Source of the DNA: a virus
Lineage: Duplodnaviria > Heunggongvirae > Uroviricota > Caudoviricetes
Virus record (IMG/VR): IMGVR_UViG_2526164604_000025
Strand: one strand, 5' to 3'
Length of the DNA: 13,895 bases
The notes below the pieces were generated by a model. The model was not told where the DNA came from and made no database searches. It was given only the letters and a program-made list of their open reading frames with translations. The translations under genes were made by a program, and so were the position numbers. Positions 98 to 10,226 of the stretch are shown here, piece after piece; the stretch's first letter is position 1; every line of letters starts with the position of its first letter.

Positions 98-520
98 ATG
101 TTTCTGAAAACAGAACAATTTGAATATAACGGTGTGTCCGTCACGCTTTCCGAATTGTCTGCGCTGCAGCGGTTTGATTATATGAAGTTTGTTTCAGACG
201 CAGAACAACAGAAGACAACGAAGCATGATGTCGTGCGCATTAACCAGCGATATCTGGAAACGGCATCCCTGCTTGTGGCGATGTCGCTATGGCATTCCCA
301 TTCCCTCAAAGGCACTCTGGCCTCTCCGGAGACAGAGATGCAGCAGATCCGCCGTGAAGTGATGCTGGGATGGCCTGCTGATGCACTGAATCAGGCAACG
401 AACCGGGTGCTTTATCTTTCAGGTATGCTGGATAACCGGCACGATGCCGATCCTGAACAAACCGGTAAAGCAGAAGCGACTGAGTCGGTAACATCAAAAA
501 AGCATTCGAAGGCGAGCTGA
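98..520 (+). CDS. tail assembly chaperone G
   Basis: 140-aa ORF (MFLKTEQFEYNGVSVTLSELSALQR...) closely resembling lambda gpG. GGAGG ribosome-binding site at 87-91. Lies directly upstream of the T-like frame. Confidence 0.9.
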   Translation: MFLKTEQFEYNGVSVTLSELSALQRFDYMKFVSDAEQQKTTKHDVVRINQRYLETASLLVAMSLWHSHSLKGTLASPETEMQQIRREVMLGWPADALNQATNRVLYLSGMLDNRHDADPEQTGKAEATESVTSKKHSKAS

Positions 521-855
521 ACTTTGTCCTGAAACTGGCGCGTGAGATGGGGAGAGCCGACTGGCGCGCCATGCTTGCCGGGATGACATCCACCGAATAT
601 GCCGACTGGCGACGTTTTTACTGCACGCATTATTTTCAGGATACCCAGCTGGATATGCATTTTTCCGGGCTGATGTACGCCGTACTCAGCCTGTTTTTTT
701 GCGATCCGGATATGCATCCGGCGGATTTCAGCCTGTTCGCTCCGGAGGCAGAGGAAGGACAGGCGGAGACGCCGGACGAAAATGATGTACTGATGCAGAA
801 GGCGGCGGGCCTCGCCGGTGGAGTCCGTTTCGGGGAGGAGGGAAGGAGGTTGTGA
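98..855 (+). CDS. tail assembly chaperone G-T fusion made by programmed -1 ribosomal frameshift (join 98..502, 502..855)
   Basis: The G frame contains an X XXY YYZ slippery heptamer A AAA AAG at 496-502. The -1 frame from there is open to 855 and encodes a gpT-like sequence (...LAGMTSTEYADWRRFYCTHYF...DENDVLMQKAAGLAGGVRFGEEG). The standalone ORF 547..855 has no independent start context. Confidence 0.75.
496..502 (+). other. -1 programmed ribosomal frameshift slippery site (AAAAAAG)
   Basis: The heptamer sits in the G reading frame 18 nt before the G stop, and the -1 frame downstream carries the gpT homologue. Confidence 0.7.
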
Positions 856-898
856 CAGTTATTGATGGTATCAGAGGACATTTCAGGAGGTGACCACG

Positions 899-3544
899 AT
901 GGCAGGTAATTTTGCCGATCTGACAGCCGTGCTGACACTGGATTCTGCCCGTTTTTCTGAAGAGGCAGCGCGGGTAAAAAAAGAGCTGGGTGAAACCAGT
1001 GCGCTTGCTGATTTGATGTCCGGGAAAGTCAGTCAGTCTTTCAGAAAACAGGCTGATGCTGCTGAGCAGAGTCTGAGCCGACAGGCGCTGGCGGCACAAA
1101 AAGCCGGGATATCAGTCGGACAGTATAAGGCTGCCATGCGCACACTGCCCGCACAGTTCACGGATATTGTCACTCAGCTTGCCGGTGGTCAGAATCCCTT
1201 CCTTATCATGCTGCAGCAGGGGGGGCAGATCAGCGATTCATTCGGTGGACCGCTCAGCCTGCTTACCCTGCTGAAGGAGGAACTTCTCGGGATCAGGGAT
1301 GCCTCTGAATCATCAGAGGAGTCGCTGTCAGATACGGCAAATGCACTGGCTGAAAATGCCCGGAATGCCGGTGAGCTGGGACGATTTATGTCGGTGGCCC
1401 GTGTGGCGGCAGGTGGCGGGGTTGCCGTACTGGCCGCGCTTGCTGCCGCCGCCTGGCAGGCAGAGCAGGCTGACCGGGCCTTATTGCGTTCACTGATCCT
1501 GACCGGAGGGGCGGCTGCCACCACAACGGCAGAATTGTGGAAAATGGCCGGGGTGATCAGCGATGAAGCCGGTGGTGGTATCAGACAGGCGGCAGAAAAT
1601 CTGGCCCGTCTGGCAGAAAGCGGGAAATATACCGCCGGGCAGCTACGGATCATGGGGGAAACCTCTCAGAGATGGCTGCAGACGGTGGGGGACGATGCCG
1701 GGAAGGTGGAAAAAGCCTTTGAAGGGATTGCAGCAGATCCGGTGAAGGCGCTGGCCTCCCTGAATCAGCAGTATAACTTCCTGAGCGTTTCCCAGTTACG
1801 CCATATTGATGAGCTTGAGCGCACGAAAGGTAAACAGGACTGCGGTGACGGAGGCGATGTCCCTGTTTGCGGATGTCATGAATGCACGTCTGGAGCAACT
1901 TGATAAAGCGGCCACGCCGGTGGAAAAAATCTGGGACGATGTTAAAACCTGGACTTCTGACGCATGGGCATGGATAGGTGATCATACACTGGGGGCACTC
2001 AGTCTGATCACTGACGTGGTGGCCGGAACCGTTGAACAGGTGAAGCTGCTGCTTGTGCAGGGGGATCTGGCGCTGGCTGAATTTATTCAGTCAGCCTGGG
2101 AAACGACAAAGAATGTGCCCGGCGTTGGTGCGTTGTTTGGTGAACTGGCAGAAGAGAACCGCGTATTTATTGAGAAAACAAAACGTGATGAACTGGCGCT
2201 GAGAAAATCCATTGCGGAACGGGATGCGCGTATACGCCAGGGGGAAATGGGGTACATCAACCGTTCGCGTGCAACAGGCGTCAGCAAAGGTCCGGGGCAG
2301 CAGGAAGCCGTCAGCCGTCTGGCTGAAGAGCTGACAGGTAAAAAGCATACATCACCGAAAACGCGCTCTGCCGGGGAGAGGGAAGAGGAGCAGGCAAGAG
2401 AGGCTCTGCTTGCCCTTGAAGCTGAGCTCAGGACGCTGGAAAAACACAGCGGTGCGAATGAGAAAATCAGCCGGCAGCGCCGTGATTTATGGAAGGCGGA
2501 AAGTCAGTATGCGGTCCTGAAAGAGGCTGCCACGAAACGGCAGTTATCTGAGCAGGAAAAATCCCTGCTGGCGCATAAAGACGAGACGCTGGAGTACAAA
2601 CGCCAGCTGGCTGAGCTGGGAGACAAAGTTGAACACCAGAAACGGCTGAATGAGCTGGCACAGCAGGCTGCGCGGTTTGAGCAGCAGCAGGGCGCGAAGC
2701 AGGCGGCAATCAGTGCCCAGGCGCGGGCCTCACCGACCGTCAGGCGCAGCGGGAGTCGGAAGAGCAGCGCCTTCGTGACGTGTACGGTGATAATCCGGAT
2801 GCGCTGGCGAAGGCCACATCTGCACTGAAGAACACCTGGTCTGCGGAGGAGCAGCTTCGTGGAAGCTGGATGGCCGGGCTGAAGTCCGGCTGGGGCGAGT
2901 GGGCGGAAAGTGCGACGGACAGTTTTTCGCAGGTTAAAAGTGCTGCCACGCAGACCTTTGACGGTATTGCACAGAATATGGCGGCGATGCTGACCGGTGC
3001 AGAGGCAGACTGGCGGGGATTCACCCGTTCGGTGCTGTCCATGCTGACAGAGATTTTTCTGAAGCAGGCGATGGTGGGGATAGTCGGGAGTATCGGCAGC
3101 GCCATTGGCGGTGCTTTCGGTGGTGGTGCGTCTGCCTCCACGGGGACGGCCATTCAGGCTGCGGCGGCGAACTTCCATTTCGCGACCGGGGGATTTACGG
3201 GGACGGGGGGTAAATATGAACCTGCGGGAATTGTTCATCGCGGGGAGTTTGTCTTCACGAAGGAAGCAACCAGCCGGATTGGCGTCGGCAACCTGTACCG
3301 CCTGATGCGGGGCTATGCGGAAGGTGGTTATGTGGGTGGTGCCGGAAGTCCGGCGCAGATGCGGCGGACGGAAGGCATTAATTTTAATCAGAACAATCAC
3401 GTGGTGATTCAGAACGACGGCTCCAACGGACAGGCGGGGCCGCAGCTGATGAAGGCGGTGTATGACATGGCCCGCAAGGGGGCGCAGGATGAGATTCAGG
3501 CGCAGATGCGTGATGGCGGCGTCTTTTCCGGAGGCAGGCGATGA
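899..3544 (+). pseudogene. tail tape measure protein (lambda gpH-like), reading frame broken twice in this sequence
   Basis: Three consecutive ORFs (890..1903, 1806..2828, 2780..3544) each match successive parts of lambda gpH: the N-terminal SLSRQALAAQKAGISVGQYKAAMR, the middle ALLALEAELRTLEKHSGANEKISRQRRDLWKAESQ, and the C-terminal MAGLKSGW...FHFATGGFTGTGGKYEPAGIVHRGEFVFTKEATSRIGVGNLYRLMRGYA. Frame changes lie near 1841 (+1) and near 2725-2727 (-1, in a G run). Likely true start is ATG 899 after AGGAGG at 885-890. Confidence 0.85.
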
Positions 3545-3870
3545 AAACATTTCGCTGGAAAGTGAAGCCGGATATGGAGGTGAACTCGCAGCCATCGGTG
3601 CGTGAAGTGCGTTTTGGTGACGGGTATTCGCAGCGTATGGCGGCGGGGCTGAATGCTGACCTGAAAACATACCGTGTGACGCTTTCCGTGACCCGGGAGG
3701 AGGCCCGACATCTGGAGGCATTCCTGGCAGAGCACGGTGGCTGGAAGGCGTTTCTGTGGACACCGCCTTATGCCTGGCGGCAGATAAAGGTGACCTGTGC
3801 CGCCTGGTCATCACGGGTTCGCATGCTGCGGGTTGAATTCAGTGCCGAGTTTAAGCAGGTGGTGAACTGA
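3541..3870 (+). CDS. minor tail protein M
   Basis: 109-aa ORF MKTFRWKVKP...RMLRVEFSAEFKQVVN, near-collinear with lambda gpM. Its start overlaps the H stop (ATGA) and its stop overlaps the L start (TGATG). Confidence 0.9.
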   Translation: MKTFRWKVKPDMEVNSQPSVREVRFGDGYSQRMAAGLNADLKTYRVTLSVTREEARHLEAFLAEHGGWKAFLWTPPYAWRQIKVTCAAWSSRVRMLRVEFSAEFKQVVN

Positions 3871-4568
3871 TGCAGGATATTCACGAAGAAAGTCTGAACG
3901 AGTCGGTTAAATCAGAGCAGTCACCGCGGGTGGTGCTCAGGGAAATTGACCTGACGGTGCAGGGCGGTGAGCGGTATTTTTTCTGTAATGAGCTGAATGA
4001 AAAAGGGGAGGCGGTCACCTGGCAGGGGCGGCAATATCAGGTATACCCGATTGACGGCAGCGGTTTTGAGATGAACGGGAAGGGCAGCAGTGCCAGACCG
4101 TCGCTGACGGTGTCCAATCTGTTTGGTCTGGTCACCGGGATGGCGGAGGACCTGCAGAGCCTGGTGGGGGCCACGGTGGTCCGCCGCCGGGTGTATGCCC
4201 GTTTTCTGGATGCGGTGAATTTTGTGGCGGGCAATCCGGAAGCGGACCCGGAGCAGGAGCTGAGCGACCGCTGGGTGGTGGAGCAGATGTCAGAGCTGAC
4301 GGCCATGACAGCCTCGTTTGTGCTGGCCACACCGACGGAGACGGACGGAGCGCTGTTTCCCGGTCGCATTATGCTGGCGAATACCTGTATGTGGACCTAC
4401 CGCTCTGATGAGTGTGGTTACACGGGCGGGGCTGTGGCGGATGAGTTCGATAAACCCACCACCGATATCCGTAAGGACAGATGCAGCAAGTGCATGCGCG
4501 GGTGTGAGATGCGCGGCATGGTGGCTAATTTTGGCGGTTTCCTTTCCATTAATAAACTTTCGCAGTAA
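3870..4568 (+). CDS. minor tail protein L
   Basis: 232-aa ORF matching lambda gpL in length and sequence, including the C-terminal Cys-rich region (CSKCMRGCEMRG). Confidence 0.9.
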   Translation: MQDIHEESLNESVKSEQSPRVVLREIDLTVQGGERYFFCNELNEKGEAVTWQGRQYQVYPIDGSGFEMNGKGSSARPSLTVSNLFGLVTGMAEDLQSLVGATVVRRRVYARFLDAVNFVAGNPEADPEQELSDRWVVEQMSELTAMTASFVLATPTETDGALFPGRIMLANTCMWTYRSDECGYTGGAVADEFDKPTTDIRKDRCSKCMRGCEMRGMVANFGGFLSINKLSQ

Positions 4569-4578
4569 ATCCCGGTTT

Positions 4579-5901
4579 ATGACACAGACTGAATCAGCGA
4601 TTCTGGCGCATGCCCGGCGGTGTGCGCCTGCGGAGTCGTGCGGCTTCGTGGTGAGAACGCCGGAGGGGGAGCGGTATATCCCTTGTGTGAATATCTCTGC
4701 AGAGCCGGAGGCGTATTTTCGTATTGCACCGGAAGACTGGCTGCGGGCAGAGATGCAGGGGGAGATTGTGGCACTGGTCCACAGTCATCCCGGTGGTCTG
4801 CCCTGGCTGAGCGAGGCCGACCGGCGGCTGCAGATAAAAAGTGCACTGTCCTGGTGGCTGGTCTGCCGGGGGGAAATTCATAAATTCCGCTGTGTGCCAC
4901 ATCTGACAGGACGGCTCTTTGAGCACGGGGTGACGGACTGTTACACGCTGTTCCGGGATGCATACCATCTGGCGGGAATTGATATGCCGGATTTTGAGCG
5001 TGAGGATGACTGGTGGCGCAATGGTCAGAACCTGTACCTGGACAATATGGAGGCGACTGGTTTTTACAGGATTTCCCTGCCTTCCGCACAGCCTGGCGAT
5101 ATCCTGCTGTGCTGCTTTGGCGCATCGGTGGCCAATCATGCCGCCATATACTGCGGCAACGGTGAACTGCTTCACCATCTGCCTGAACAACTGAGTAAAC
5201 GGGAGAGGTATTCCGAAAAATGGCAACGACGAACGCATTCAGCCTGGCGTCACCGCCACTGGCACGTATCTGCCTTCACGGGGATTTACAACGACTTTGG
5301 CCGCCGCCTCAGCCTGTATGTGAACACGGCAGCGGAAGCCATCCGTGCCCTGTCGATGCAGATGCCGGGATTCCGCCGTCAGATGAACGAAGGCTGGTAC
5401 CAGATACGTATTGCCGGTGATGACACGGCACCGGAGGCGGTGTACGCCCGTCTTCACGAACAGCTGGGTGAGGGAACGGTCATCCACATTGTGCCGCGAC
5501 TGGCCGGGGCCGGAAAGGGTGGACTGCAGATTGTGCTGGGGGCGGCGGCCATCGTGGGGTCGTTCTTCACTGCCGGGGCATCAATGGCGTTATGGGGTTC
5601 AGCCCTGGCAGCCGGTGGTTTTTCTGCCACCACGATGCTGTTTTCACTTGGAGCCAGCATGATTCTGGGCGGTGTGGCCCAGATGCTGGCCCCGAAGGCA
5701 AAAACACCGGATTACCGCGCAACGGATAACGGCAGACAGAACACGTACTTTTCCTCGCTGGATAACATGATTGCCCAGGGGAACCCGATGCCGGTGCCTT
5801 ACGGTGAAATGCTGGTTGGCTCCCGGCGAATCTCCCAGGACATCAGTACCCGTGATGAAGGCGGTGACGGGAAGGTGGTGGTTATCGGGCGGCAGGCATA
5901 A
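4579..5901 (+). CDS. tail assembly protein K (NlpC/P60 plus JAMM/MPN domains), fused in frame to the I-like region as the sequence stands
   Basis: From ATG 4579: MTQTESAILAHARRCAPAESCGFVV..., with the JAMM motif HSHPGGLPWLSEADRR and an NlpC/P60 Cys/His (GVTDCYTLF, NHAAIY) as in lambda gpK. In lambda, K stops shortly after the I start; here the K frame runs on through the I homologue to 5901. Confidence 0.8.
   Translation: MTQTESAILAHARRCAPAESCGFVVRTPEGERYIPCVNISAEPEAYFRIAPEDWLRAEMQGEIVALVHSHPGGLPWLSEADRRLQIKSALSWWLVCRGEIHKFRCVPHLTGRLFEHGVTDCYTLFRDAYHLAGIDMPDFEREDDWWRNGQNLYLDNMEATGFYRISLPSAQPGDILLCCFGASVANHAAIYCGNGELLHHLPEQLSKRERYSEKWQRRTHSAWRHRHWHVSAFTGIYNDFGRRLSLYVNTAAEAIRALSMQMPGFRRQMNEGWYQIRIAGDDTAPEAVYARLHEQLGEGTVIHIVPRLAGAGKGGLQIVLGAAAIVGSFFTAGASMALWGSALAAGGFSATTMLFSLGASMILGGVAQMLAPKAKTPDYRATDNGRQNTYFSSLDNMIAQGNPMPVPYGEMLVGSRRISQDISTRDEGGDGKVVVIGRQA
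5220..5901 (+). pseudogene. tail assembly protein I (lambda gpI-like), frameshifted near 5295
   Basis: The I-like N-terminus MATTNAFSLASPPLARICLHGDLQR is in frame 0 (5220..5294). The rest of the I homologue (FGRRLSLYVNTAAEAIRAL...GEMLVGSRRISQDISTRDEGGDGKVVVIGRQA) is in the K frame from 5296. One extra nucleotide around 5295 explains the shift. Confidence 0.75.
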
Positions 5902-6062
5902 AAGCGAAAAAATCCCGCAGTGCTCACGGACAGGAACTGCGGGAGCGTTACGAAGATTGAGTGTAAGGAATTATTCTTATGTCACGACAAAAACATTAAC
6001 TCAGAGAGGGAGGATGTGCCGTTCTTTTCAGGGAGAAAGGATTTATCGTCCTGAGGAATAAA

Positions 6063-6084
6063 GGTAAGGGGCCCGCCCCTTACC
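6063..6084. terminator. GC-rich hairpin between convergent I and sodC (possible bidirectional terminator)
   Basis: GGTAAGGGG-CCCG-CCCCTTACC: 9-bp perfect stem with a 4-nt loop, 8 bp beyond the sodC stop and about 160 bp beyond the I stop. Confidence 0.5.
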
Positions 6085-6091
6085 TGACTGA

Positions 6092-6619
6092 TTATTGAAT
6101 GATGCCGCAGGCCATTCTCGCACCACCACCGCCCAGGGGCTCCGGATGGTCATGATGGTTATCACCGCCAGCATGAAGCATGAGAGAACGCCCTTTAATC
6201 TCTTTTAATGAGTTCAGTCTCGGGGCCAGGACCGGGTAGTTCGCTTTTCCGTCATGCGTCACGAACAGCGCAGGGAGGTCGCCCAGGTGTCCATCCGGAG
6301 ACCAGGGGCCAAGATGTTTGCCGGTGTTTTTCGGGTCAAAGTGACCGCCAGCCGATAATGCTGCGACCGGTTTTCCGTCTTTCAGTGCCGGGGCGCAATT
6401 TCCTTTTTCGTGCACATGAAAACCATGAATGCCTTCAGACAGAGAGTGAAGGGCTGGTGTGAACAGCAGACCGTAGGGGGTCTCCTGAATGGTTATTTTT
6501 CCAATGCTGACTTCTTTTCCGTCAGCACTGACAAGGTTCATTGGGACTTCCTGTTCTGCTGCGTATCCGCATGATGCTGCTGTCAGCATGGCAATGGCAG
6601 CAATGATTTTACATTTCAT
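6092..6619 (-). CDS. sodC: periplasmic Cu,Zn superoxide dismutase (prophage-encoded SodC)
   Basis: Minus-strand ORF from ATG at 6619-6617: [20 protein letters not shown] (signal peptide) ... [12 protein letters not shown]...[12 protein letters not shown]...GDLPALFV...[13 protein letters not shown]. These are the metal-ligand and active-site motifs of Cu,Zn SOD. The longer track ORF (to 7126) is an antisense extension over the J start. Confidence 0.9.
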
Positions 6620-6752
6620 AAAACCCTCATTAATTCCGTTAACAGACTGAGCTTGCTGGTTACAGGGTAACAAACAGCGTTCTGATGATATCGCGCAATA
6701 GCTGTGCAATATCCTATCACTGCGATTAATAATACCAATTGAGAGGAACATT
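6620..6752. promoter_or_regulatory. divergent intergenic region between sodC (-) and J (+); presumed sodC promoter and J ribosome-binding site
   Basis: 133-bp non-coding gap. GAGAGG precedes the J ATG at 6753; a GAGGG-like site precedes the sodC ATG on the minus strand. No specific -10/-35 elements assigned. Confidence 0.3.
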
Positions 6753-9700
6753 ATGGGTAAAGGTGGCGGCAGGGCGCACACGCCGGTTGAGGCAAAGGAC
6801 AATCTTAAGTCCACGCAGATGATGAGCGTGATTGATGCCATTGGTGAAGGGCCGATTGAAGGTCCGGTGAAGGGGCTGCAGAGTATCCTGGTGAACAAAA
6901 CCCCGCTGACGGACACGGACGGTAATCCTGTGATACATGGTGTGACAGCGGTCTGGCGCGCCGGGGAGCAGGAGCAGACACCACCTGAAGGCTTTGAGTC
7001 CTCCGGAGCTGAAACCGCACTGGGCGTGGAAGTGACGAAGGCAAAGCCGGTGACGCGCACCATTACGTCCGCGAACATTGACCGCCTGCGGGTCACCTTC
7101 GGGGTGCAGTCACTGTTGGAGACCACCTCAAAGGGCGACCGTAATCACTCTTCTGTCCGACTGCTGATTCAGTTGCAGCGTAACGGTAACTGGGTGACGG
7201 AAAAGGATGTCACCATTAACGGCAAGACCACCTCGCAGTTCCTGGCGTCGGTGATTCTGGATAATCTGCCGCCCCGGCCCTTTAACATCCGGATGGTCAG
7301 GGAGACGGCGGACAGCACCACGGACCAGCTGCAGAACAGAACGCTGTGGTCGTCATACACCGAAATCATCGATGTGAAACAGTGCTACCCGAACACGGCC
7401 ATTGTGGGGCTGCAGGTGGATGCGGAGCAGTTTGGCGGTCAGCAGATGACGGTGAACTACCATATCCGCGGTCGCATCATCCAGGTGCCGTCAAACTATG
7501 ACCCGGAAAAACGCACGTACAGCGGCATCTGGGACGGCAGCCTGAAACCGGCATACAGCAACAACCCGGCCTGGTGCCTGTGGGACATGCTGACTCACCC
7601 GCGCTACGGCATGGGAAAACGCCTGGGGGCGGCGGATGTGGACAAGTGGGCGCTGTATGCCATTGCGCAGTACTGCGACCAGATGGTCCCTGATGGTTTC
7701 GGGGGCACAGAGCCGCGGATGACCTTTAATGCGTACCTGTCACAACAGCGTAAGGCGTGGGACGTTCTCAGTGATTTCTGCTCGGCGATGCGCTGTATGC
7801 CGGTATGGAACGGCCAGACGCTGACGTTCGTTCAGGACAGTCCGTCGGATGTGGTGTGGCCGTACACCAACAGAGATGTGGTGGTGGATGATAACGGCGT
7901 GGGGTTTCGCTACAGCTTCAGCGCCCTGAAGGACCGCCACACGGCGGTGGAGGTGAATTACACCGACCCGCAGAACGGCTGGCAGACCTCCACGGAACTG
8001 GTGGAAGACCCGGAAGCCATACTGCGCTACGGACGCAACCTGCTGAAGATGGATGCGTTCGGCTGCACCAGTCGCGGTCAGGCCCACCGTGCCGGGCTGT
8101 GGGTGATAAAGACCGGACTGCTGGAAACGCAGACGGTGGATTTCACGCTCGGGTCACAGGGGCTGCGTCACACACCCGGTGACATTATTGAAATCTGTGA
8201 TAACGACTATGCCGGGACCATGACCGGCGGACGTATCCTGTCCATCGATGCCGCCAGCCGCACCCTGACGCTGGACCGTGAGGTGACACTGCCGGAGACC
8301 GGTGCCGCCACGGTGAACCTGATTAACGGCAGCGGTAAGCCGGTGAGTGTGGACATCACCGCACACCCCGCGCCGGACCGGATACAGGTCAGCACCCTGC
8401 CTGATGGCGTGGAGACATACGGTGTATGGGGACTATCCCTGCCGTCACTGCGCCGTCGCCTGTTCCGCTGTGTCTCCGTCCGGGAAAACACGGACGGCAC
8501 CTTTGCCATCACGGCGGTGCAGCACGTACCGGAAAAAGAAGCCATCGTGGATAACGGTGCCCGCTTTGAGCCGCAGTCAGGCACCCTGAACAGCGTCATC
8601 CCTCCGGCAGTGCAGCACCTGACGGTGGAGGTGAGCGCAGCTGACGGCCAGTATCTGGCGCAGGTGAAATGGGACACGCCGCGGGTGGTGAAGGGCGTGC
8701 GCTTCAGTCTGCGCCTGACCAGCGGAAGCGGAGAAGGCAGCCGTCTGGTGACCACCGCCATCACTGCGGATACAGAGCATCGTTCCAGTGGTCTGCCGCC
8801 GGGGGAATACACCCTGACGGTCAGGGCGATTAACAGTTATGGCCAGCAGGGGGAACCGGCCACCACCACGTTCAGGATTAATGCACCTGCGGTACCCGCC
8901 ACGATTGAGCTGACACCGGGCTATTTTCAGATAACAGCGGTCCCGCGTCTTGCGGTGTATGACCCGACGGTACAGTTTGAGTTCTGGTTTTCGGAGACAA
9001 AAATCGCAGATACATCTCAGGTGGAAACCTCTGCCCGTTATCTGGGGACCGGCAGTCAGTGGAGTGTATCCGGCCCGCACATTAAGCCCGGGAAGGATTT
9101 CTGGTTTTACGTGCGCAGCGTCAACCTGGTGGGGAAATCTGCTTTTGTGGAAGCCAGTGGCCGGGCCAGCAATGATGCAGAAGGGTATCTGGGGCTGTTT
9201 CGGGAAAAAATAGGAAAACTGCATCTGGCTCAGGGGCTGTGGGAGCTGATAGACAACAGCCAGCTTGCGGATGAGATGGCGGAGATGAAGACCTCCATCA
9301 CCGAAACCCGCAATGAAATCACACAGACGGTCAGTAAAACGCTGGAGGACCAGAGCGCCATCATACAGCAGATACAGCGCGTGCAGAAGGACACAAATGA
9401 TGACCTTGCTGCACTTTACATGCTGAAGGTACAGAAAACAAAAAATGGCATACCCTATGTTGCCGGTATTGGAGCGGGGATTGAGGATACTGATGGCCAG
9501 CCCCTGAGCAACATACTGCTGCTGGCTGACCGTATTGCGATGATTAACCCGGAGGACGGCAACACCACGCCGTTATTTGTGGCGCAGGGGAATCAGTTGT
9601 TCATGAACGATGTGTTCCTGAAACGACTGTTTGCGGTGAGTATCACGTCATCCGCCAATCCCCCGACGTTTTCCCTGACGCCGGAGGGCAGGCTGACCGC

Positions 9701-10226
9701 AAGAAATGCTGATATCAGCGGTAACGTGAATGCGAATTCCGGGACGCTCAACAACGTCACGATTAACGAGAACTGTCGGGTTCTGGGAAAACTGTCCGCG
9801 AACCAGATTGAAGGCGATCTCGTTAAAACAGTGGGCAAAGCTTTCCCCCGGGATTCCCGTGCACCGGAGCGGTGGCCATCAGGGACCATTACCGTCAGGG
9901 TTTATGACGATCAGCCGTTTGACCGGCAGATTGTTATTCCGGCGGTGGCATTCAGTGGCGCTAAGCATGAGAGAGAGCATACTGATATTTACTCCTCATG
10001 CCGTCTGATAGTGCGGAAAAACGGTGCTGAAATTTATAACCGTACCGCGCTGGATAATACGCTGATTTACAGTGGCGTTATTGATATGCCTGCCGGTCAC
10101 GGTCACATGACGCTGGAGTTTTCGGTGTCAGCATGGCTGGTGAATAACTGGTATCCCACAGCAAGTATCAGCGATTTGCTGGTTGTGGTGATGAAGAAAG
10201 CCACCGCAGGCATCAGTATCAGCTGA
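6753..10226 (+). CDS. host specificity protein J (central tail fibre / tip attachment protein)
   Basis: 1157-aa ORF collinear with lambda gpJ: [22 protein letters not shown]..., [57 protein letters not shown], ending ...[10 protein letters not shown]. Confidence 0.95.

Follow-up and report, generated by a model that had tools for sequence, protein, structure and literature searches.

The window analysed here, 13,895 nucleotides in length, is the first 13.9 kb of contig AKMA01000014.1 from the 2012 draft assembly of E. coli O157:H7 TW10119, and it sits within the tail module of a sodC-carrying lambdoid prophage adjoining tRNA-Ser and hya. The tail genes follow one another on the plus strand in the order G, T, H (in pieces), M, L, K, I, J, lom and tail-fibre genes, and at its right end the window corresponds to the prophage that complete O157:H7 genomes (L005, L008) have beside tRNA-Ser and the hya operon. 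A short minus-strand ORF at 12646-13116, which we presume may be TccP2-like, is a pseudogene of an 'EspF repeat-containing protein', with an EspV fragment next to it in the region that runs on to 13895. The same arrangement of pseudogene and EspV fragment is found in the tRNA-Ser/hya-adjacent prophage of complete O157:H7 genomes, and as the arrangement fits, we assign the contig end to that prophage. The neighbours of K and I are as follows.

3541..3870, plus strand: M
3870..4568, plus strand: L
6092-6619, minus strand: sodC (Cu/Zn superoxide dismutase, 175 aa), a moron between I and J
6085-6062, minus strand: GC-rich 10-bp hairpin with a T-rich tail, directly after the sodC stop
6753..10226, plus strand: J

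The ORF tool reported sodC in an over-extended form, as a 344-aa ORF from a GTG (6092..7126), and it likewise listed a 527-aa ORF from TTG 4318 that is the K-I frame described below, stretched upstream. A promoter and terminator scan of 5100-6800 returned nothing bearing on K or I, its only product being the terminator-like hairpin after sodC.

Between L and sodC the window reads as follows.

4579..5901, plus strand: fused K-I ORF, 440 aa plus stop, K residues 1-239 followed by I residues 26-226
4579..5294, plus strand: K part (lambda gpK-type tail assembly peptidase)
about 4585-4893, plus strand: JAB domain of K (Pfam)
about 4918-5250, plus strand: NlpC/P60 domain of K (Pfam)
5201..5208, plus strand: Shine-Dalgarno-like GGGAGAGG, 11 nt upstream of ATG 5220, read from the sequence
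5220..5420, plus strand: truncated I ORF, 66 aa, made up of 25 authentic gpI residues and 41 out-of-frame residues before the stop
5295, plus strand: extra C (caacgaCtttggc) outside any homopolymer, which puts the I sequence downstream of it in frame with K
5296..5901, plus strand: I residues 26-226, now in the K frame (FGRRLSLYVNTAAEAIRAL...)
5320..5323, plus strand: GTGA, in which TGA 5321-5323 is the normal stop of K, out of frame here

The 440-codon frame opens at ATG 4579 (MTQTESAILAHARRC...) and ends at TAA 5899-5901. K is missing only its last 8 residues, LAAASACM, and keeps both peptidase domains; Pfam run on the single ORF returned Prok-JAB at aa 3-105 (E=1.6e-15), NLPC_P60 at aa 114-224 (E=2.1e-12) and Lambda_tail_I at aa 238-311. 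Downstream of the junction, 5296..5901 encodes what remains of the ubiquitin-like N-domain once its first strand is lost, a glycine-rich linker, hydrophobic helices and the C-terminal plug domain. Residues 1-25 of I are gone from the fusion, and the match to the Lambda_tail_I profile (83 positions) starts at position 15 in the fusion as compared to position 3 in the repaired I described below. As about the first 12 positions of this profile, which include ARICLHGDLQR, are missing, the ubiquitin-like fold of the fusion is probably damaged. The ORF that starts at ATG 5220 begins MATTNAFSLASPPLARICLHGDLQR; its first 25 residues align with residues 1-25 of lambda gpI, homology to I ends after codon 25, and Pfam finds no domain match in the 66-aa product.

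Set beside lambda, the locus has the same gene order, L-K-I-J, and the same domains, Prok-JAB plus NlpC/P60 in K and Lambda_tail_I in I; unlike lambda, the window has no separate full-length I ORF and its K lacks a stop of its own. Among the hallmarks of gpK (TAPK), the JAB/MPN domain followed by an NlpC/P60 (C40) peptidase is present in the K-I ORF, and a protein of about 247 aa that ends within the 5' part of I is absent, the K frame continuing to 5901. Among those of gpI (TAPI), the C-terminal hydrophobic helices and plug domain are present and aligned with lambda gpI through to residue 223, and a complete ubiquitin-like domain (PF06805) read from its own ATG is absent in the window as written. 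The initial annotation had described a K-I fusion ORF at 4579..5901, an I homologue that resumes in the K frame from 5296 and a truncated I. The ORF list, the sequence and the occurrence of three Pfam domains in one ORF agree with this description, the frame from ATG 5220 ending at 5420, and only the length given for the fusion, 441 aa, has to be corrected to 440 aa plus stop.

When the window was aligned with its best complete-genome match, that of E. coli O157 FDAARGOS_293 (NZ_CP022050.2; L001), exactly one difference was found from 3721 to 6928, the extra C at 5295. Upon removal of this C, K is a protein of 247 aa that ends ...GIYNDLAAASACM at the TGA of GTGA (5320-5323), I is a protein of 226 aa from ATG 5220, and the two genes, which overlap by 103 nt, are base-for-base identical to those of FDAARGOS_293. 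The K/I overlap of lambda itself is also 103 nt. The repaired K is the FDAARGOS_293 gene for 'C40 family peptidase' (WP_000194760.1), and the repaired I aligns over its full length with lambda gpI (PDB 8iyk_I, E=8e-95). Many O157:H7 genomes have genes identical to both repaired ones: K and I of the sodC-carrying lambdoid prophage of O157:H7 (WP_000194760.1, WP_001090031.1) are those of the window once C 5295 is removed, and they stand among the same neighbours, namely sodC, J, lom, tail fibre, EspF-repeat pseudogene and tRNA-Ser/hya. As the I frame is -1 relative to K, any +1 indel within the K/I overlap fuses the two. The extra base suspected around 5295 from the window alone is thus confirmed as the sole difference from FDAARGOS_293 between 3721 and 6928, and the alignment with K and I of related lambdoid prophages, which the initial annotation had put forward as a check, both located it and showed that the two genes can be restored.

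The insertion is confined to this contig in every collection that we searched. Of 5,426 complete E. coli genomes, 1,771 match an 80-nt probe over 5295, at 4,753 places in total, none of which (0/4,753) carries the extra C, the best matches being 79/80 and none reaching 99%. The species-representative genome collection, IMG/VR and the JGI metagenomes were searched with a 24-mer that includes the C and gave no exact match; at least 120 viral contigs match the 23-mer that lacks it. Of 100 complete related loci, 98 end the K frame at its normal TGA, the equivalent of 5321-5323, and have an I frame that continues for 513-615 nt. An exact search with the 440-aa product located a single contig, AKMA01000014.1 (123 kb; GCA_000267185.1), which encodes it near one end; the protein is deposited under EIO84692.1, 'cell wall-associated hydrolases domain protein [Escherichia coli TW10119]'.

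The TW10119 genome, in 56 contigs, belongs to a set of 26 O157:H7 drafts that appeared in 2013; the genomes of that project were assembled from Illumina reads alone (Velvet) or as hybrids of Illumina and 454 FLX/XLR reads (Celera assembler) (PMC3593324). The paper gives no strain-by-strain assignment, and as the contig count of TW10119 is low, we infer that its assembly is a hybrid (PMC3593324). The K/I region is itself repetitive: genomes have 2 copies at the median and 15 at most, and the O157:H7 genomes listed have 8-12. Three further single-base changes lie in tail genes of the same window.

1839, plus strand: extra A (caggActgcgg) in the tape-measure gene, which it splits into ORFs 890..1903 and 1806..2828
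about 2725: 1-nt deletion in the tape-measure gene, which lacks a C that the intact genes of L004, L005 and L008 have
12257-12263, plus strand: a run of seven A residues (A7), eight (A8) elsewhere, at the start of the tail-fibre C-terminal-domain gene

The frame breaks of the tape-measure gene were mapped with the intact gene of O157:H7 PV15-279 (L004), the tape-measure protein of phage JLK-2012 being too divergent for this use (24% identity). None of 1,440 homologous places, from 639 complete E. coli genomes, has the extra A at 1839, and none of 5,911 places, from 697 complete genomes, has A7 at 12257-12263, all of them having A8. Each of these two companion indels breaks a tail gene; A7 puts the beginning of the tail-fibre C-terminal-domain gene out of frame, and the gene is called as 82 aa and not 89 aa. 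A change of A8 to A7 is a classic homopolymer miscall, typical of 454 data, and the extra A at 1839 is probably a second consensus error at the same contig end. Unlike these indels, the deletion at 2725 is shared: at least 99 complete genomes have an identical copy of the 80-mer around it, and PGAP flags their gene as 'frameshifted'. As it is common to so many complete genomes, it is a genuine lineage mutation, a lineage-wide pseudogenisation of the tape-measure gene of this prophage. The 2725 deletion thus shows that real lineage mutations can be seen in the complete-genome collection, in which the indels at 5295, 1839 and 12257-12263 were not found.

Based on our data we propose, with a probability of about 0.8, that the K-I fusion is a consensus error of sequencing or assembly in one draft assembly. 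In the real phage, a K of 247 aa with JAB and NlpC/P60 domains would be followed by an I of 226 aa with a ubiquitin-like domain and a tail-tip plug; the two genes would share 103 nt, the frame of I lying one base behind that of K, and a single spurious C at 5295, within this overlap, would read K into I. The underlying gene pair is probably intact and ordinary and, if the base is an error, K and I are an overlapping pair of the kind present in thousands of E. coli prophages. O157:H7 is highly clonal, and a consensus error is the likelier cause because three unique frame-breaking single-base indels fall within 14 kb of such a pathogen; it is favoured further because the extra C is confined to one draft contig end that lies in a multi-copy repeat. 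That the three indels originated in sequencing or assembly, and not in the strain, we infer from these comparisons of assembled genomes rather than from reads. A point against a consensus error is that the insertions at 5295 and 1839 are non-homopolymer and hence not of the classic 454 error type. The initial annotation had offered two alternatives, a sequencing error or a real fusion or pseudogenisation; both are legitimate, and the uniqueness of the C to one 2012 draft contig, the two companion indels and the finding of no conserved fusion narrow them towards an error of sequencing or assembly.

A consensus blended, at the contig end, from paralogous repeat copies would give mosaic flanks. 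Despite the clonality of O157:H7, no single complete-genome locus, those of L001 and L005-L009 included, exceeds 98.8% identity over the whole window, or 98-99% over the flanks, and the segment 7840-8440 is at most 99.5% identical to any complete genome. In a 25-mer comparison that drew on 8, then 128 related loci, plus two sub-window searches, most 25-mers of the window are present in one paralogous prophage or another; the sites at 3422, 3523 and 3720 were found elsewhere, and those at 7874, 12304, 212-237 and in parts of 10890-11181, substitution-type sites among them, are unmatched in the sampled loci. The contig end is mosaic, through either true recombination or the blending of paralogous prophages in the consensus, and as some of the unmatched sites are of the substitution type, the locus could be genuinely divergent and not blended. 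The tail-fibre N-terminal-domain gene also carries an 18-nt in-frame deletion at 12042-12048 relative to L005 and L008, which was found in none of about 127 sampled loci.

It is conceivable, though we consider it unlikely, that the extra C is a real insertion private to the strain and reflects the ordinary pseudogenisation of a decaying prophage. I would then have lost its first 25 residues as an independent protein, K would have gained a 201-residue tail, and the base would be one more disabling mutation in a prophage that already has no intact tape-measure gene. As the shared 2725 deletion shows one, real frameshifts do accumulate in prophage genes under relaxed selection, and because its tape-measure gene is frameshifted, this prophage is tail-defective, under relaxed selection and unable to build tails alone. 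Consistent with such decay, K or I is disrupted in some way in about 5% of related prophage loci, and sporadic K-I fusions with other junctions occur in other assemblies, some of them complete genomes. Nevertheless, three private indels in 14 kb, compared to none in hundreds of complete O157:H7 genomes, are far above expectation for private mutation; moreover, one of the three is a homopolymer-length change of the 454 kind and the locus is a contig end within a multi-copy repeat, all of which argues for the consensus error.

The sporadic fusions bear on whether K and I are ever joined as a lasting architecture. In a word-seeded search of 5.8 billion proteins, several of the best 120 matches pair JAB and/or NlpC/P60 with Lambda_tail_I, and each of these fusions has only 1-2 sequences in its cluster, from 1-2 contigs, as compared to clusters of up to 12,883 sequences for normal 247-aa K proteins in the same search. 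Their junctions differ, falling after KWQRRT (P0003), RYTDK (P0028), WRHQ (P0012), NDL (P0034) and ND (P0004), and two of the fusions (P0001 and P0041) pass through the third frame too. An exhaustive HMMER search returned no clean full-length K-I fusion among the best 150 of 1.84 billion cluster representatives; the matches listed are K-only proteins (about 230-260 aa) and I-only proteins (about 170-220 aa), and a handful of short matches that span the K-I junction contain obvious out-of-frame stretches and several frame changes. As the fusions are sporadic and differ in their junctions, several of them with extra frame changes, the K-I fusion appears from these protein sequences to be a recurrent accident of the 103-nt overlap and not a family. 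A fused TAPK-TAPI architecture recurring as a conserved lineage in independent genomes was not found in the protein searches, and a conserved natural K-I fusion is rejected, the clusters holding only 1-2 sequences with varied junctions or several frame changes. The initial annotation had also allowed that homologous prophages might carry the same configuration as an annotated, functional fused protein; the related prophages hold no conserved protein of this kind.

A functional fusion has some precedent in the literature. The N-domain of I is ubiquitin-like and the JAB domain of K has been proposed to cleave I at the glycine that ends this domain; in addition, I 'may be fused' to J or K, and one E. 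coli prophage has an I-JAB fusion (PMC1779556). From work on the lambda tail tip, structural roles are assigned to the C-terminal helices and plug domain of gpI, and virions show gpI only from residue 101 or 135 onward (PMC11101478, PMC10721106); gpK was not detected in virions (PMC11101478, PMC10721106, PMC12617516). As the part of gpI seen in virions starts only at 101 or 135, the fusion retains the whole of the structural C-terminal portion of I. The product could accordingly be imagined as a real JAB-NlpC/P60-Ubl-plug polyprotein, in which the K peptidase would cleave after the glycines that end the ubiquitin-like (Ubl) domain and free the plug into the tail tip, and both the cleavage proposal and the K-I fusions reported by Iyer et al. 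2006 (PMC1779556) lend themselves to this reading. If it were true, a processed polyprotein would be a natural experiment backing the Iyer/Aravind view of gpK as a deubiquitinase-like protease acting on gpI. We regard it as very improbable, and release of the C-terminal part of I from the fusion is pure speculation: the start of the Ubl domain is lost and its fold probably damaged, the other fusions form clusters of only 1-2 sequences with no clean example among the best 150 representatives, and the prophage has no intact tape-measure gene. Compared to the TAPK-TAPI and TAPI-TAPJ fusions described by Iyer, Burroughs and Aravind in 2006 (PMC1779556), the present one has the region of the first Ubl strand deleted, and it differs from their TAPK-TAPI fusions in being limited to one draft contig, with no conserved fused lineage among its relatives.

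The least probable reading, that a programmed -1 ribosomal frameshift from K to I is normal in these phages, as it is from G to T, and is hard-wired in the window, is geometrically allowed since I is -1 to K with a 103-nt overlap in nearly all relatives, but it is rejected, as no X XXY YYZ heptamer occurs in any frame in 5150-5322 while the same scan did pick up A AAA AAG, its positive control, which lies in frame at 496-502 close to where G (98..520) ends, and as I has its own ATG and Shine-Dalgarno-like sequence, with an N-terminus that matches deposited lambda gpI from residue 1. To our knowledge, no K-I frameshift product has been reported. Like the G-T pair of lambdoid tail chaperones, K and I are two overlapping tail-gene frames whose products can be joined; unlike G-T, their overlap has no slippery heptamer and the join is made by an insertion in the DNA, not by the ribosome. 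The heptamer at 496-502 precedes the T ORF (547..855) and is the expected site of the G-T programmed -1 frameshift; PGAP labels T 'incomplete' in the reference genomes.

The fusion is neither conserved nor a case of recoding, and nothing at this locus is new biology. What it offers is a lesson in data quality: the end of a 2012 draft contig, lying in a tail module of about 10 copies, holds three frame-breaking indels seen nowhere else. It is because of the frame-breaking indel at that contig end that GenBank holds the chimeric EIO84692.1, and sporadic entries of this sort can pass for domain fusions in comparative analyses.

The comparison with lambda also bears on the start of gene I in intact prophages. 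RefSeq/PGAP starts I ('tail assembly protein', WP_001090031.1, 193 aa) at the GTG that overlaps the K stop, which corresponds to position 5320 of the window (6760 in both L001 and L003). ATG 5220, the lambda-equivalent start that is preceded by the Shine-Dalgarno-like sequence, lies 33 codons upstream of this GTG, and the 33 residues in between correspond, in alignment, to residues 1-33 of the deposited gpI sequence of lambda and cover positions 3-14 of the Pfam profile. Judged by this alignment, the RefSeq start of I in these prophages is probably placed too far downstream, by 33 codons.
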